A stretch of 50,509 nt of DNA from Eubacteriales bacterium (GTDB lineage Bacteria; Bacillota; Clostridia; Oscillospirales; CAG-272): the NCBI GenBank assembly GCA_045588165.1, contig JAZNDP010000039.1:1-50509 (forward strand). Reading direction: 5' to 3'. This document shows positions 1 to 5,697 of the stretch, piece by piece (the stretch's first letter is position 1; the number at the start of each line of letters is the position of its first letter). A program made the position numbers and the translations under genes. The notes under the pieces are model-generated. The model was not told the origin of the DNA. It did no database searches and saw nothing but the letters and a program-made list of their open reading frames with translations.

Positions 1-252
1 GAATCTCACCTTTACGCGATCTTCGTACCTCCTGCTCCGAGCAGGCTACCCCGCGGCACATCAGGTCAACTGCTTAATGCTGCTTGGTTCCCCACCTGAC
101 ATGGTTCACAGCTCCCAATTGCGCAAGACCCGCTCTTCAACACAGCAGAATACGACTCAAACCGTATCAGCTCAACCCTCAAAAAAGGAATGAACCCCTG
201 CTGTAGCGGATTTCAGGTACAGGGCTCCGCTAATTCCCCGGCTGGTATGGCC
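1..252 (-). ncRNA. ffs: Large bacterial SRP RNA (scRNA, Alu + S domain); 3' end probably just outside the window
   Basis: The minus strand has an Alu-like 5' part (GGGGAAUUAGCGGAGCCCUGUACCUGAAAUCCGCUACAGCAGGG) and the helix-8 motif GAACCAUGUCAGG-UGG-GGAA-CCA-AGCAGCAUUAAG. The usual UCC-GGAA-GGA stem is replaced by a compensatory UGG-GGAA-CCA. The 5' boundary is approximate. Confidence 0.93.
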
Positions 253-298
253 TTATTTCACAGTCCGTCCGAACTGTCTGCCAAAGACTTACCAATGT

Positions 299-327
299 AT
301 TATAACAGATTTCTTTGATTTTTTCAA
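299..327 (-). promoter_or_regulatory. sigA promoter for SRP RNA
   Basis: TTGAAA (327-322), 17 bp, TATAAT (304-299), with extended -10 TG. Confidence 0.8.
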
Positions 328-370
328 GTATATTTTTAAATTTTCTCCAGATTTCTTCTCATCAATGATG

Positions 371-406
371 AAAAAGGACGTCGACATTTTGCCGACGTCC
401 TTTTTT
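371..406. terminator. Intrinsic terminator (bidirectional shape) after the N/Q-rich small gene
   Basis: AAAAA-GGACGTCG...CGACGTCC-TTTTTT inverted repeat. Confidence 0.8.
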
Positions 407-445
407 GCCGCAACCCGCGGCATAAATCAGGAAACCGAAATTCGC

Positions 446-616
446 TTACCGATTGTTCTGGTAATTCTGATTCTGGTTATTCTGATTGTTTTGATTCTGC
501 TTGTTCTGGTTCTGGTTGTTCTGATTCTGCTTGTTCTGATTGTTCTGGTTGTTCTGATTCTGCTTGTTCTGGTTGTTCTGATTCTGATTGTTCTGATTCT
601 GATTATTGTTCTGCAT
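446..616 (-). CDS. 56-aa Asn/Gln-rich low-complexity microprotein (candidate spore protein)
   Basis: MQNNNQNQNNQ...QNYQNNR; GGAG (626-623) 6 nt before ATG at 616; terminator downstream; sigG-like promoter upstream; repeats stay in frame and mix AAC/AAT codons. Confidence 0.75.
   Translation of the reverse strand: MQNNNQNQNNQNQNNQNKQNQNNQNNQNKQNQNNQNQNKQNQNNQNNQNQNYQNNR
452..612. repeat. Imperfect tandem repeat of 3-9 nt units (ttctga/ttctgg/ttg) encoding the N/Q tract
   Basis: Recurring TTCTGATTCTGCTTGTTCTG-type units are directly visible. Confidence 0.85.
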
Positions 617-758
617 ATTCAGCTCCGTTTCTCCGTCGACCAACGTAATGCATCGCCGTAACAGCCTACGTCGACGGGATCGGACTGTTACTCTTCCCCA
701 CGGCAAGACGTATGACAATTCCTGCCGAGCTTTGTGAGTCGATTTGGACTCACATCAT

Positions 759-788
759 CAGTATGCGCAGAACTTCATTCGCTTATTC
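759..788 (-). promoter_or_regulatory. sigG-like (forespore) promoter
   Basis: GAATA (788-784), 18 bp, CATACTG (765-759); fits the sigG consensus GnATA-N18-CATAcTA. Confidence 0.6.
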
Positions 789-806
789 AAAACAAAACTT
801 AAAAAA

Positions 807-2180
807 TCATTCCAACATATATTTCGTATCCACGGCGTGACCGATGGCGAACAGGACACGAGCCATCATGCCGATGCAAATGGCGGCAAAGATGGGGGAG
901 ATCAAATTGGCAAAGCCGAAATCGGGAATCAAAAGCAAATAAACAACATCGGAGATTGCGTAAAGCACTGACCATACGAAACCCCAAAGAAGCGACTGAT
1001 TCAGATCGCGGTGAAGCCCTTCGATCATCTTCTCCTCTGCCGTTCCGTACCGCTCTCTTCCTACCACAAAGCCGGTATGCTCTGCGATTACCTTTCGCAA
1101 CCCTTGTACCATCAGGAGCATCAGGGCGATCCATAACAGCGACTGCAAAACGTTCACAATGATCAAAACCGTGTAATCCAGTCTTGCTTCGTCGTTCTTA
1201 ATGATCGCGCTGTATGTAAACTGCTCAAAAAAGTGATTTTCCAGCAAAAATGCGATCACCGCAGTAATGCCAAAGGAAGCGGTTAGCGGGATCCAGATCG
1301 GTTTTGGCGCGCGGAAAAACCGATAAAGTATCCAAAACACCAAGCCCAAAAATATCGCGCTCAGAAAATCCGGTATGTAATTTCGGTTTTCCAGACGAAA
1401 ATCCACCGACAGACACAGGGCGATCAGGAAAAGGATCCGGACCGTCTGAAAACGGGAACAGACAAAGAGTCCCGTTTTGGGGAGGATCTCCTTATGATAA
1501 CGTTCGACAAGACCGTCGATCAAAACCCGATCCCCTCGGATTCTATGAAAATACCCTTCGATCTTTACGAGCCAAATCACTCCAAAAATTAAAACCGGAA
1601 GAAACGCCATCATACGAAGAACGCCAATATACCGATAAAGATTCATCCACTCACTGCCCTCGTCGTATACGTTGTTCGTCAGATCCGCCAGTTCGGGCAG
1701 GAAGGAAAGGATTGCCTTCAAAAACACGAAGACAACCGTCAGATTCCGCATCCGATCCGTCACATTCCTTCTTTTTGACGTTCCCTGAAGGAAAATCGAA
1801 GTGTTGGCATAAAAGTATCCCAGCTGATTGAACCCATCAAACAACCGATAATACGCAAGACCGAGGCAAATCATTTCCGCCACGGCAAACACGAAGGACC
1901 ACAGCAAAAGCGAGGAGGTCTGCTCACTGGGAACCGAAATTCCAAACACCCAAAGCAGCGCCAACCATTTTGCCGCGTCGATCAGAATCATTTTTTTGAA
2001 AATCGACAGCGCTCCATTTACCGATTCGTTCAGATGCGCCAATCGGGAAAGCCCGAGGCACAGGAAACTATAGCCCAAAAAATCCGGAAGCACATCAATG
2101 ATTCCGATGTTGGGATTACAGAAAAACAAGAGCGCTATCGCGATCCAGCCAAATCCCATACTGTTTTTTTCTCTCGTCAT
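807..2180 (-). CDS. Uncharacterised polytopic membrane protein with internal duplication (about 10 TM)
   Basis: 457 aa with many hydrophobic segments; repeated motif DVLPDFLGY / NYIPDFLSA; ATGA overlap with the upstream gene. Confidence 0.85.
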   Translation of the reverse strand: MTREKNSMGFGWIAIALLFFCNPNIGIIDVLPDFLGYSFLCLGLSRLAHLNESVNGALSIFKKMILIDAAKWLALLWVFGISVPSEQTSSLLLWSFVFAVAEMICLGLAYYRLFDGFNQLGYFYANTSIFLQGTSKRRNVTDRMRNLTVVFVFLKAILSFLPELADLTNNVYDEGSEWMNLYRYIGVLRMMAFLPVLIFGVIWLVKIEGYFHRIRGDRVLIDGLVERYHKEILPKTGLFVCSRFQTVRILFLIALCLSVDFRLENRNYIPDFLSAIFLGLVFWILYRFFRAPKPIWIPLTASFGITAVIAFLLENHFFEQFTYSAIIKNDEARLDYTVLIIVNVLQSLLWIALMLLMVQGLRKVIAEHTGFVVGRERYGTAEEKMIEGLHRDLNQSLLWGFVWSVLYAISDVVYLLLIPDFGFANLISPIFAAICIGMMARVLFAIGHAVDTKYMLE

Positions 2181-2881
2181 CTTTTTTCCTTTCTCTGACG
2201 CTTCTCCTGCCGATATTCCGCGTATTCCTTGCGAGCCTTTTCCCGTCGTCTCTCATTTTCCGCGCGGAAGCGATTGACAAACTCGAACCGTGAGGCTTTA
2301 CGCTCCATTTCCAGATCACTCTCGTCGCAGATTCGCATATAGCAGGAGCCGATCAGAATCAGGTTGAGAATCTGACATGCCAGATACACGACCCAGGCAA
2401 TCCAAGTAAGCTCGGCGGCACACGCCTGAACACTGGCGATGGGCAGAAGCTTCACCAGATATACGGTGTAGTAAAGGCAGATAAACACGAAGTTTCTGAT
2501 CGCGCTCCCCGCAATCTTCCCGACCTCCGTCTCCTTGGCGATTGCCCGAATACTATACAGCATGAGTGTCTGAAAGATGAAAAATACCACCTGCTCTATG
2601 GCGCTGAAAACACCCTCGTAGCCCTCCGAGAACAGAGGCTTTTTGATCCATTGCATCTCATAGAAAAGACGGGAGACGTCGGCGCTGACGAGAGCCGTTG
2701 AAAACAGCAGCATAAGAAGCGCGCCCAGCCCCATCCAAAGGAATGACCGATGATACTGCCGCAGACGATAGGCAGACACCAAGACGATCCCATATCCCAA
2801 CACGCGAATATACGCGCCGAAGGAATTCAGAGTCATAAAGGTCGCAACAAAATATCCGATAAAGAGCAATCCAAAGCCCAT
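2177..2881 (-). CDS. Uncharacterised membrane protein (about 5 TM) with a charged C-terminal tail
   Basis: Start reassigned to MGFGLLF (GAGGT RBS); hydrophobic helices, then an R/E/K-rich tail. Confidence 0.82.
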   Translation of the reverse strand: MGFGLLFIGYFVATFMTLNSFGAYIRVLGYGIVLVSAYRLRQYHRSFLWMGLGALLMLLFSTALVSADVSRLFYEMQWIKKPLFSEGYEGVFSAIEQVVFFIFQTLMLYSIRAIAKETEVGKIAGSAIRNFVFICLYYTVYLVKLLPIASVQACAAELTWIAWVVYLACQILNLILIGSCYMRICDESDLEMERKASRFEFVNRFRAENERRREKARKEYAEYRQEKRQRKEKR

Positions 2882-2895
2882 GTTCTTACCTCGTG

Positions 2896-2931
2896 GCATG
2901 ACCGAATCCCTACGCCAAAATTCGGTCATGC
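2896..2931. other. Intergenic stem-loop after secA with no U-tract in the secA direction
   Basis: GCATGACCGAAT-N12-ATTCGGTCATGC, 12-bp inverted repeat. Confidence 0.6.
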
Positions 2932-2940
2932 TTATTTTGA

Positions 2941-5697
2941 TTATTCGTTTTCCCCTCCGGGGGCGCCGCAGCACTTTTTGTATTTCTTACCCGATCCGCT
3001 GGGACAGGGATCGTTTCTTCCCACACTTGCCTCTGCTCTCTTTCTGACAGTAACCTTTTTCGCCTTCTTTTGTCCGTTGTCCTCAAACCCTTCGTTCAGA
3101 GGCTTTGCCAGCTGAACTCTTTTGACCTCGGGGGTCTGAACGGTAACCGAAAGGATCATACGTGTGGTGCGATCCCGAATGTCGCCTACCATGGCATCAA
3201 ACATATCCGCTCCCTGCAAACGGTACTCATTCACGGGATCTCTCTGAGCATAGGATTGCAGACGAATACTGTCCTTCAGATCCTCCATGGCGTCGATGTG
3301 ATCCATCCAGTTCCGATCCACGTTTTGGAGAAGCACTGCCCGCTCCAGTTCACGGAAGCGCTCCGCGCCGATGGCGGTTTCCTTTTCGTGATACAGAGCC
3401 AGGGCACGATCACAAAGCTCCTCGATAATAGCGTCCTGATCCAATCCCTTCAGCTCGTTCTCCTCATACCGATAATCCTCAGCGGTAGTCAGCAAGCCTT
3501 TATACGCTTCCCTCAAGCCGTTGAAATCCCACATCGTGGCATCATCTCCGTGGAGATAAGTCTCGGCGTTTTCTCTGACCGTCGCAAGGATCATCTTCTG
3601 AACCGTGCCGCTAATATCCTCGCCGTTCAGTACGTCGTTTCTCTGCTTATAGATCACGTTTCTCTGCTGATTCATCACGTCGTCATAGGTCAGCACGTAT
3701 TTGCGACGCTTGAAGTTCTGATCCTCGATCCGCTTCTGGGCTGACTCAATGGTATTGGACAGAATCTTGGCATCAATGGGGGTATCGTCGGGCAATCCCA
3801 GACGGTTTACCATGCCGATCAAGCGATCAGAGCCAAAGAGGCGCATCAGATCGTCCTCCAAAGACAGATAGAAACGGGATTCACCAGGGTCCCCCTGCCG
3901 TCCCGAACGTCCCCGAAGCTGGTTATCAATCCGTCGGCTCTCATGCCGCTCGGTACCGAGGATAAACAATCCTCCCGCTTCTCTGACCTGCTCCGCCTCA
4001 GGCGCAATTTCCACCTTGAAGCGCTCATAAAGCTCTCTGAAAATCCGTCTTGCGTTTTTGACTTCCTCATCATCGATCTCCGCCGTTCCCGTCGCCATGG
4101 CGATCAGGTCGTCGTCGATCTCCATCTTCCGCATTTCCTTTTTCGCCATATATTCGGGATTTCCGCCCAGCATAATGTCGGTTCCTCGTCCCGCCATATT
4201 GGTGGAAATAGTGACAGCACCCAGCTTGCCTGCCTGCGCCACGATCTCCGCCTCTCGGTCATGGTACTTTGCGTTCAGAACCGTATGAGCGATTCCCTGC
4301 CGCTTCAGTCGGCGGGAAAGCTCCTCGGATTTGTCAATGGAAACGGTTCCCACAAGAACGGGCTGTCCCTTGTCGTGACAGTCCATGATCTGTCGGATCA
4401 CGGCATTGTATTTCTGATCCACGGTCTTATAGACCGCATCGGCATGATCCTCTCGGATCATGGGCTTATTGGTGGGAATTTCTATGACGTCCAAGCCGTA
4501 AATCTCGCGAAATTCATTTTCCTCAGTCAGCGCCGTACCGGTCATACCGGACAGTTTATTATACATTCTGAAATAGTTCTGGAAGGTAATAGTCGCCAAG
4601 GTTTTGTTTTCCTTTTCGATCTTCACGCCCTCCTTGGCTTCAATGGCTTGGTGCAAACCGTTGGAGTATCTTCTTCCCGGCATCAACCGTCCCGTAAAGG
4701 AATCCACGATCATGACACCGTGCTCGTTGACCACGTAATCCACGTCAAGCTTCATAATGCCGTGAGCGCGAATCGCCTGATTAATATGATGAGAGATCTC
4801 GGAGTTTGCCGCATCGGACAGATTTTCCAGACCAAAGAACTCCTCCGCCTTTCTCGCGCCCGAGGGAGTCAGAATCGCGTTGTTGGCTTTTTCGTCCACA
4901 ATGTAATCGGCTTCGATATCATCGTAGCTTTCCTTGGAATCCATCTCCTTGATCACGTATTTTCGCAAGCGACGGGCAAAGACGTCCGCGCGATCGTACA
5001 AATCCGTGGATTTTTCTCCCGCGCCGGAAATGATCAAAGGTGTTCTTGCCTCATCCACAAGAATGGAGTCCACCTCGTCTACGATCGCAAAGTGATGTCC
5101 GCGCTGAACCATGCGCTCCTTATACACCACCATGTTATCACGGAGGTAATCAAAGCCAAACTCGTTGTTGGTTCCATAGGTAATATCCGCCGCGTACGCC
5201 GCCTTTTTATTCTCGGGAGAAATACCGTGCACCACAAGACCGGTAGTCAGTCCCATAAACTCGTACACACGACCCATTTCCTCGCTGTCTCGCCGCGCCA
5301 GATAGTCGTTGACGGTAACCACGTGAACCCCCTTTCCGCTCAAGGCGTTCAAGTATGCGGGCATGGTCGCCACCAGCGTCTTACCCTCACCGGTCTTCAT
5401 TTCGGCAATTCGTCCCTGATGGAGGATAATACCGCCGATGATCTGCACACGGAAGGGGCGTTTGCCGAGAATACGGTCATCCGCCTCACGAATTGCCGCG
5501 TAAGCATCCGCCATGATATCCTCAAGAGTCTCCCCGTTTGCCAATCGCTCTTTCAGCAGATCAGTGGTTCCCGACAGCTCCTCATTTGTCATTGCCGCGT
5601 ATTTAGGAGCCAGAGATTCTATATAGTCTACGTACTTTTCCAGCTTTTTGAGCTGTCTGTCGCTATAGGTTCCAAAAAGTTTCGTTGCCAGTCCCAT
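2941..5697 (-). CDS. secA: Preprotein translocase ATPase SecA
   Basis: AEMKTGEGKT, VDEVDSILVDEARTPLIISG, TNMAGRGTDI, RRIDNQLRGRSGRQGDPG, C-terminal SEC-C; GGAGG RBS before MGLATK. Confidence 0.99.
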   Translation of the reverse strand: MGLATKLFGTYSDRQLKKLEKYVDYIESLAPKYAAMTNEELSGTTDLLKERLANGETLEDIMADAYAAIREADDRILGKRPFRVQIIGGIILHQGRIAEMKTGEGKTLVATMPAYLNALSGKGVHVVTVNDYLARRDSEEMGRVYEFMGLTTGLVVHGISPENKKAAYAADITYGTNNEFGFDYLRDNMVVYKERMVQRGHHFAIVDEVDSILVDEARTPLIISGAGEKSTDLYDRADVFARRLRKYVIKEMDSKESYDDIEADYIVDEKANNAILTPSGARKAEEFFGLENLSDAANSEISHHINQAIRAHGIMKLDVDYVVNEHGVMIVDSFTGRLMPGRRYSNGLHQAIEAKEGVKIEKENKTLATITFQNYFRMYNKLSGMTGTALTEENEFREIYGLDVIEIPTNKPMIREDHADAVYKTVDQKYNAVIRQIMDCHDKGQPVLVGTVSIDKSEELSRRLKRQGIAHTVLNAKYHDREAEIVAQAGKLGAVTISTNMAGRGTDIMLGGNPEYMAKKEMRKMEIDDDLIAMATGTAEIDDEEVKNARRIFRELYERFKVEIAPEAEQVREAGGLFILGTERHESRRIDNQLRGRSGRQGDPGESRFYLSLEDDLMRLFGSDRLIGMVNRLGLPDDTPIDAKILSNTIESAQKRIEDQNFKRRKYVLTYDDVMNQQRNVIYKQRNDVLNGEDISGTVQKMILATVRENAETYLHGDDATMWDFNGLREAYKGLLTTAEDYRYEENELKGLDQDAIIEELCDRALALYHEKETAIGAERFRELERAVLLQNVDRNWMDHIDAMEDLKDSIRLQSYAQRDPVNEYRLQGADMFDAMVGDIRDRTTRMILSVTVQTPEVKRVQLAKPLNEGFEDNGQKKAKKVTVRKRAEASVGRNDPCPSGSGKKYKKCCGAPGGENE

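Follow-up and report, generated by a model that had tools for sequence, protein, structure and literature searches.

The window analyzed here, a stretch of 50,509 nucleotides (nt) from an Eubacteriales bacterium of the order Oscillospirales (GTDB CAG-272; assembly GCA_045588165.1, contig JAZNDP010000039.1), carries near its start a small gene on the minus strand whose 56-amino-acid (aa) product consists almost entirely of asparagine (Asn, N) and glutamine (Gln, Q). Judged by its sequence and that of its relatives, this open reading frame (ORF) is very probably a translated protein-coding gene, conserved and unannotated. It belongs to a previously undescribed family of N/Q microproteins of 39 to 72 aa, which also turns up in numerous other families of this order, whose members are uncultured gut Clostridia. 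The gene is probably transcribed in the forespore, from the predicted promoter GAATA-N18-CATACTG, by RNA polymerase carrying sigG, sigF or both. We tentatively propose that these microproteins form a new family of forespore proteins resembling the small, acid-soluble proteins of spores (SASPs), one that is not homologous to the gamma-type SASP SspE and would probably be its analogue.

The unit spans positions 788 to 371 of the minus strand, a strand left unstated in the preliminary description of the locus. Every element listed there was found, namely the 56-aa ORF with 50 N/Q residues, a ribosome-binding site, a terminator and the GAATA-N18-CATACTG box, and with the leader between them they make up the self-contained unit that had been claimed, which is monocistronic. 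Its predicted parts, in the direction of transcription, are as follows.

784..788, minus strand: -35 box GAATA of a forespore-type (sigF/sigG-like) promoter
759..765, minus strand: -10 box CATACTG of the same promoter, with an 18-nt spacer to the -35 box
734..753, minus strand: hairpin GTGAGTC / GACTCAC (-11.5 kcal/mol, z = -5.1, 0 of 200 shuffles as good)
633..689, minus strand: leader pseudoknot (P1, 689..683 with 666..660; loop strand, 677..670 with 640..633)
623..626, minus strand: Shine-Dalgarno (SD) sequence GGAG, 6 nt 5' of the ATG
446..616, minus strand: coding sequence of the 56-aa Asn/Gln-rich protein, stop included (ATG 616..614, stop 448..446)
371..406, minus strand: intrinsic terminator, hairpin plus T-run (-23.6 kcal/mol, z = -6.6, 0 of 200 shuffles as good)

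Given the position of the promoter, the hairpin at 734..753 would lie at the transcript's 5' end or close to it, about 100 nt of leader separating it from the SD. Hairpins of differing sequence occupy the same position directly after the -10 box in relatives (upstream sequences, compared by eye), and the block GGAGAAACGGAGCTGAA is kept 5' of the ATG in the closest ones. Because an A-run flanks its hairpin, the terminator could act bidirectionally. The protein comprises 30 N, 20 Q, three K and a single M, Y and R, so that 50 of its 56 residues (89%) are N or Q; it contains no Glu, Ala, Ile, Phe, Gly or Thr. AlphaFold2 predicts disorder, with a mean predicted local distance difference test score (pLDDT) of 51.5 and no secondary structure. 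This is the sole N/Q-rich ORF of the window's genome, and its guanine-plus-cytosine content is 37%, compared with 51% for the genome. Tandem Repeats Finder reports periods of 6, 9, 15 and 24 in the repeat region, across which four of the six frames are fully open, including a 98-aa hydrophobic antisense ORF. An open frame alone therefore proves nothing here, and the single locus would be unconvincing.

Relatives provided the comparison. A DNA search of 61 of them matched the ORF region in numerous genus genomes, frequently on contigs other than the one carrying ffs, the signal recognition particle (SRP) RNA gene that adjoins the unit in the window. Of 40 loci from relatives, 24 had an ATG-started N/Q ORF with a strong SD. 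Across the order, an 18-base degenerate pattern encoding N-Q-N-N-Q-N was present in 42 of 301 genomes (34 of 151 genera), and the reversed control in five genomes. Thirty order-wide loci resolved into 18 small N/Q ORFs, the window itself, seven loci lacking an N/Q-rich tract and four longer, different proteins. Genus and order together yielded a comparison set of 39 non-redundant loci, from which L026 (only 16 nt of upstream sequence), L040 (an ORF truncated where its contig ends), L067 (coinciding with L035) and L059 (the window's own locus) had been dropped.

The ORFs of the comparison set range from 39 to 72 aa (median 50) and from 52% to 90% N+Q (median 80%). N is commoner than Q (median ratio 1.7), the net charge is positive throughout (+1 to +7), and hydrophobic residues account for 25 of 1974. 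An ATG and an SD are present in all 39 loci, partly through the selection of loci. The N/Q frame is held from ATG to stop in every one of them despite many length changes, although a frameshift within the repeat would give a Thr/Ile/Arg or Ser/Glu/Gln product and create no stops. Frameshifting length changes and loss of the ribosome-binding site or start, which the preliminary description had named as findings that would undo its proposal, were looked for in the orthologous loci, and none was seen. Its claim of a real, conserved coding ORF is thus upheld: frame, ATG and SD persist across ORFs of 39 to 72 aa. Additionally, in 646 aligned codons from 14 orthologue pairs, which overlap one another, differences at codon positions 1, 2 and 3 number 76, 33 and 192. 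Residues other than N and Q also recur in the protein alignment: K, R, S, a C-terminal aromatic residue and a final R or K. We considered the antisense hydrophobic ORF as the gene and rejected it; antisense frames are open in 75 cases, and a start codon with an SD-like sequence accompanies them in nine, inconsistently.

Within the genus, the pattern is carried by 29 of 71 genomes (about 40%; reversed control, one of 71), and at least three further genomes carry divergent copies (L032, L033 and L037). Since 8 of the 16 genus genomes that are at least 90% complete match the pattern, the gene is accessory. Matches lie on at least two contigs or places in 10 of the 42 pattern-matching genomes; among these, the second place in G113 was confirmed as a small N/Q ORF. 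Outside the order, 30 of 401 genomes sampled from the phylum matched, about as many as with the reversed control, and the 28 loci examined there held no comparable small ORF. A scan of one genome per species gave at least 120 stretches, and the 80 that were fetched contained 26 small N/Q ORFs. Public records label these Acutalibacteraceae (six), Faecousia (five), Oscillospiraceae (two), 'Clostridia bacterium' (six), 'Eubacteriales' (two), and Candidatus Pelethomonas, Candidatus Cacconaster, Acetatifactor, 'Bacillota bacterium' and Neomarinimicrobiota (one each, the last a doubtful case of 30 aa). A 65-aa N/Q ORF at L185, in a record that appears to come from an isolate (Oscillospiraceae bacterium LCP25S3_E10), stands behind GAATA-N17-AATAATA. 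N/Q tracts in the order are not confined to microproteins: at L068 (G074:C11), an ORF of 164 aa begins with an N/Q-rich N-terminus, continues through a Pro-rich linker and ends in a C-terminus that is hydrophobic and membrane-like.

The family is missing from the collections that we checked. Pfam-A and NCBIfam scans of the 56-aa protein returned no family at E <= 10, in agreement with the earlier proposal that it is not homologous to SspE. Eleven exact N/Q family sequences were looked up in a collection of 15 billion proteins, and none was present. The exact sequence of the 98-aa antisense hydrophobic ORF, which gene callers may be prone to choose instead, was likewise absent from that collection. 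A homologue search over proteins of 30 to 98 residues yielded 1066 word candidates, none with E <= 0.001, and a profile search of 1.84 billion representatives had no matches; because this composition defeats HMMER-based searches, these two results are uninformative on the absence of the family. A protein atlas offered only feature-similar clusters of 'hypothetical protein' (44 to 61 aa, Bacillota), with a recognition value too low to mean much. Full-text literature searches found no paper describing such proteins.

Upstream of the N/Q ORFs lies a recurring promoter-like motif. The strict form, G[ACT]ATA-N17/18-xAxAxTA, occurs on the sense strand within 250 nt upstream in 23 of the 39 loci, against one of 39 for the reverse complement and a mean of 0.68 (maximum 5) in 200 shuffles. 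When the last base is relaxed (G[ACT]ATA-N17/18-xAxAxTx), the motif is found in 36 loci, against three of 39 for the reverse complement and a shuffle mean of 2.1 (maximum 6). Positions that the pattern does not force are also biased. A T precedes the -35 box in 28 of the 36 motif loci, and the first base of the -10 box is C in 19 and A in 11. At the fifth position only C (25 loci) and A (11) occur, G and T being absent, and the last base is A in 23, G in nine and T in four. The -10 boxes of the family conform to (C/A)A(T/A)A(C/A)T(A/G), and the spacer measures 17 nt in 15 loci and 18 nt in 21; all these base counts cover the 39 loci of the comparison set only. A forespore-type motif also stands before 19 of the 26 further small N/Q ORFs from the named public records. 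In ten relatives (L024, L025, L029, L031 to L033, L093 and L095 to L097), the -35 box (GAATA or GTATA) sits inside the loop of the upstream gene's terminator hairpin and the terminator's T-run serves as the promoter spacer, an unusually compact overlap of terminator and promoter.

The same architecture precedes sporulation genes. In the window's genome, spoVT has GTATA-N17-GATACTA at -67 and spoVAC has GAATA-N18-CAGATTA at -63, spoVAC is similar in two other genomes of the genus, and GAATA-N18-CAATACT lies upstream of the sigG gene in two genus genomes. A scan for sigma-70-type promoters on both strands of positions 1 to 3000 of the window gave no site between 614 and 800. The textbook sigG consensus (Helmann and Moran) is GHATR-N17/18-CATXHTA, and we take the motif of the N/Q genes to fit it and not those of sigE or sigK. 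In Saujet et al. (PMC3789822), sigE and sigK promoters are given as having ATA or AC at -35 and a -10 of CATATTAT / CATATAAT type. The consensus sequences for sigF and sigG are described there as closely alike; sigF promoters are marked by a G immediately before the -10, and sigG promoters by an A on its downstream flank. The window's promoter has a G directly upstream of its -10 box, which ends in G without the downstream A. We therefore label it forespore-type, a term that covers both sigF and sigG. The sigG promoter first proposed for the gene thus holds as a conserved forespore-type element, recurring in 36 of 39 loci and matched by spoVT, spoVAC and sigG, but not as an assignment to sigG over sigF.

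The leader of the gene contains an RNA structure supported by covariation. The hairpin loop CCGTCGAC (677..670) can pair with GTCGACGG (640..633), just 5' of the SD, to give an H-type pseudoknot. In an alignment of 13 leaders from the genus, 90.3% of cells are paired, compared with 19% to 56% when the partners are slid, and six pairs show changes in both partners. Within the pseudoknot helix, pairing reaches 98%; one of its pairs is U-A six times, C-G four times and U-G three times, and another is A-U ten times and G-C twice. The U-G pairs favor RNA pairing over a DNA operator. Because nested folding of the leader gives z = -0.2, the pseudoknot rests on covariation and not on folding energy. 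A covariance model, R1, has 19 matches in the 71 genus genomes, at most one per genome. Eighteen of these (13 training sequences and five new ones) have E <= 3e-8 and lie directly upstream of an N/Q ORF; the nineteenth (E = 6e-4) falls inside an open frame of ordinary protein-like composition and is probably false. In the family sample, R1 matched the window's genome and none of the remaining 40, of which 39 belong to other genera and one to this genus, and other members of the N/Q family have short leaders without the pseudoknot. We conclude that this genus has a leader pseudoknot, shown by covariation, only in front of N/Q genes. Since the SD is not sequestered, the pseudoknot may serve mRNA stability or efficient translation rather than act as a switch.

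The lineage has sporulation genes. The window's assembly, which is 85% complete, encodes one alpha/beta SASP (100 bits, contig C48), GPR (228 bits), SpoVAC (166 bits) and a SpoVT-like protein (226 bits, cut-off 236). SigG-like ORFs scoring 380 to 417 bits (cut-off 457) are present in 32 of 41 genus genomes. SpoIVA is above its cut-off in all five genomes in which we looked for it, three carriers without a SASP match and two of their relatives. An alpha/beta SASP is found in 266 of the 301 genomes of the order.

These observations suggest the following course of events. During sporulation, forespore RNA polymerase with sigG and/or sigF would transcribe the N/Q gene into an mRNA that begins with the 5' hairpin and, in this genus, carries the pseudoknot 5' of a strong SD, where it might stabilize the message or aid translation. 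The product, a small protein of the acid-soluble type, would build up in the spore core. Its degradation after germination would then supply Asn and Gln, that is, amide nitrogen together with Asp and Glu carbon skeletons, for outgrowth. A reserve of amino acids and nitrogen, making the protein a non-homologous analogue of SspE, is the function that we consider plausible, more hesitantly than membership in a SASP-like family; it comes from composition and analogy only. In published accounts, gamma-type SASP is proposed as an amino-acid reservoir (bioRxiv 10.1101/2021.03.29.437554; PMC7649253), and SASP genes are described as sigG-dependent, as easily duplicated and easily lost, and SspE as absent from clostridial genomes (PMC3533761). 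The patchy distribution of the N/Q pattern, 29 of 71 genus genomes, fits such easy duplication and loss. We also considered whether auxotrophy might bear on a storage role. AsnB-type asparagine synthetase was not found in any of five genomes (the window's own and four others of the genus), AsnA is present in three of five genus genomes and was not found in the 85%-complete assembly of the window, and all five contain a glutamine-synthetase-like ORF of about 700 aa; this pattern gives no clear argument either way.

Several points weigh against this proposal. The storage role, the forespore expression and the product itself are all predictions. The codon alignments were guided by translation of the same N/Q frame whose conservation they display, and the 39 loci share kinship and are not independent observations. 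A GPR cleavage site needs Glu together with Ala or hydrophobic residues, and the window's protein, without Glu, Ala, Ile or Phe, cannot hold the canonical site; its degradation at germination would need another protease. A search of the window's assembly, at 85% completeness, did not find SigG, the best match scoring 148 bits, and with SASPs in 266 of 301 genomes of the order, co-occurrence of the N/Q gene with sporulation genes does not discriminate. The -10 box of the window ends in G instead of the A typical of sigG, and transcription by sigF or by both factors is equally possible. The forespore motif is absent upstream of gpr, a canonical forespore gene, in five of five genomes, and the alpha/beta SASP gene of the genus has no clean GxATA-N17/18 box (judged by eye). 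Finally, the loose motif occurs 34 times in the 1.56-Mb assembly and 33 to 42 times in each of five shuffles, and the ORFs downstream of these sites, which were picked crudely, are not obviously sporulation genes. Since the loose motif is not enriched genome-wide, a single site carries little weight.

The regions upstream of these two forespore genes have features of their own. At five gpr loci (L099 to L103), an inverted repeat of TGCACAA and TTGTGCA, separated by about 18 to 20 nt, lies about 40 to 80 nt upstream of gpr and may be an operator or an RNA hairpin. The alpha/beta SASP gene has a long 5' region in the window's genome (G000, contig C48:4100-4370) and at L044 to L049, with conserved blocks such as ACAATAATA-CAGAGCACGG and a block ending in ...TACAGCGTAAG.

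Of the other explanations, the one that survives best makes the protein a structural or protective component of the spore core: with the protein very concentrated and water scarce there, it would form a hydrogen-bonded gel, a glass or a reversible polar-zipper (amyloid-like) matrix or, alternatively, it would be a basic coat on nucleic acids or ribosomes that contributes to dormancy or resistance. We regard this as somewhat unlikely. Its appeal lies in the prion-like composition of the protein (89% N/Q, with N commoner than Q in the family at a median ratio of 1.7), in the positive charge of all 39 members and in the disorder predicted by AlphaFold2. There is also a precedent: the Asn-rich repeats of Clostridioides difficile GerG gel spontaneously in vitro and are scored as prion-like by PLAAC, according to PMC5241399. 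The same source describes those repeats as dispensable for GerG function, however, and the N/Q family is itself dispensable, about 60% of the sampled genus genomes being without the pattern. Lys or Arg recur throughout the proteins and hydrophobic residues are scarce, which should favor solubility over amyloid. A more elaborate version, in which the proteins form a reversible hydrogen-bonded forespore matrix that helps to immobilize the spore core as a prion-like dormancy material, with synthesis gated by the pseudoknot in one genus, strikes us as distinctly less probable again.

It is improbable, by a little more still, that the gene encodes a real small protein with no special tie to spores, expressed during vegetative growth or stress as, for example, a hydrophilic stress protein or a nitrogen sink. 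The loose promoter pattern, unenriched across the genome, and the want of a clean motif at gpr and the alpha/beta SASP gene of the clade are what one would expect if this were so. The motif nevertheless keeps a fixed distance in 36 of 39 loci from many families, twelve times as many as contain its reverse complement, no sigma-70-type site was found between 614 and 800 in the window, and the box is common to spoVT, spoVAC and sigG.

There is little room for a product that is not a protein at all, whether an (AAY/CAR)n transcript that titrates an RNA-binding protein or a non-coding, slippage-prone DNA repeat. The four open frames and the tandem repeats would suit it, as would two weak Rfam matches that overlap the 3' part of the ORF: Thr_leader, which also covers the terminator (26.7 bits, gathering score 55), and CrcZ, an A-rich small RNA (15.4 bits, cut-off 95). 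Both, however, are far under their gathering scores and are accounted for by the A-rich codon run, with the terminator contributing in the case of Thr_leader. Every repeat period is a multiple of 3, the ATG and strong SD are conserved, and the N/Q frame persists in every locus, although a shift would create no stops. Variation falls chiefly at the third codon position, and K, R, S, the C-terminal aromatic residue and the final R or K recur at the level of the protein.

Hardly credible is a regulatory leader peptide, an attenuator that senses the charging of Asn- or Gln-tRNA to control a downstream gene: for all its run of identical codons, the terminator directly after it and the weak Thr_leader match (E = 0.075), the neighbors vary between loci, which speaks against it. 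A terminator-like hairpin with a T-run lies within 130 nt 3' of the ORF in 34 of 38 loci, and the downstream gene is convergent in 13 of 36. Those that are co-directional are unrelated to one another: dnaX (behind ffs), a UvrD-type helicase, a beta-lactamase-fold protein, a DinB-type polymerase, DpaA and others. Assigned to Pfam families, the neighbors likewise show no relation to one another. In the window, the next gene, ffs (RF01854, 147 bits; minus strand 250..1, cut by the window end), has its own near-consensus promoter at 327..299 on the minus strand (TTGAAA-17-TATAAT with an upstream TG, 11 of 12 sigma-70 matches). Known leader peptides are also far shorter than 39 to 72 aa. An amino-acid-operon leader or attenuator was accordingly rejected as a candidate, with Thr_leader below its gathering score and no conserved, promoterless operon downstream.

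The surroundings of the gene offer some further observations. The gene behind ffs is dnaX in several relatives. On the minus strand of the window, two apparent membrane proteins, of 457 aa (807-2180) and 265 aa (2177-2974), are encoded in the interval from secA to the N/Q gene; their hydrophobicity was judged by eye, and they had no Pfam or NCBIfam matches. The gene for the 457-aa protein (ending ...KYMLE) is a conserved upstream neighbor of the N/Q gene in many genomes of the genus. In L060 the N/Q gene adjoins dpaA, which encodes dipicolinate synthase subunit A, and in L069 it adjoins the gene of a cell-wall hydrolase of Hydrolase_2, a family that includes the spore-cortex lytic enzyme SleB. 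Because other loci have unrelated neighbors, both adjacencies may be coincidence.

If the SASP-like reading is correct, these proteins address a gap in the biology of clostridial spores. Gamma-type SASP, on which Bacillus spores draw as their amino-acid reserve, is reported to be missing from Clostridia (PMC3533761; bioRxiv 10.1101/2021.03.29.437554). A non-homologous family, more extreme in N/Q content and equipped with a forespore promoter, would then represent convergent evolution filling the place of SspE, and it would offer a way into spore biology in the gut Oscillospirales, which are abundant and mostly uncultured. Since the genes are missing from the protein collections and family profiles that we checked, metaproteomic and comparative studies are currently blind to them. 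The leader pseudoknot of this genus is itself a candidate for a new cis-acting RNA. To our knowledge, proteins made almost entirely of N and Q are very rare in bacteria, which makes the family a natural system in which to study how prion-like sequences are dealt with by cells.

Known systems resemble the N/Q family in different respects. Yeast prions and other Q/N-rich prion-like domains share its extreme N/Q content and predicted disorder, and by the usual description of prion-like composition (N/Q-rich, low in complexity and disordered) the window's protein, at 89% N/Q and a pLDDT of 51.5, qualifies. Unlike those domains, however, the N/Q tract here is the whole of a bacterial protein, it has regularly spaced Lys and Arg and almost no hydrophobic or aromatic residues, and it is probably spore-specific. 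Within the literature, the nearest precedent is GerG, the gel-forming spore germination factor of C. difficile, which we compared by composition and size as given in PMC5241399. Like the N/Q proteins, GerG is clostridial, associated with sporulation, low in complexity, Asn-rich and prion-like in composition, and its repeat number varies between strains. It is much larger, however: its predicted prion-like domain alone covers residues 43-270. GerG is about 30% Asn, with Met, Pro, Ser and Gly repeats, and its action concerns how Csp proteins become incorporated into spores. The window's protein is a near-pure N/Q chain of 56 aa behind a forespore-type promoter.

Among the SASPs themselves, the size range (below about 10 kDa) accommodates the 56-aa protein and all 39 loci at 39 to 72 aa. 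Positive net charge, scarce hydrophobic residues and predicted disorder would fit acid solubility, though only indirectly. The minor SASPs (SspH, SspI, SspK-P and Tlp) and the alpha/beta SASPs are also encoded by very small forespore-type genes, sometimes in more than one copy per genome, and PMC3533761 describes a patchy, lineage-restricted distribution for SASP genes. By Pfam, the N/Q protein has no homology to any of them; it has no profile match to the alpha/beta type (PF00269), of which the genome's true representative lies on C48, and its disordered model shows no DNA-binding fold resembling a helix-turn-helix. The likeness to SspE is closer. SspE is likewise small, repetitive and rich in Gln and Asn, and its gene too is single and free-standing, with a terminator and a forespore promoter of the kind predicted here. 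It is proposed to be an amino-acid reserve that is degraded at germination (bioRxiv 10.1101/2021.03.29.437554; PMC7649253). The N/Q family differs in being shorter (39 to 72 aa) and far more extreme in composition (80% to 90% N+Q), and, in the window's protein, in having no room for a GPR site. We conclude that the N/Q protein is not a member of the SspE family, yet it may work like SspE.

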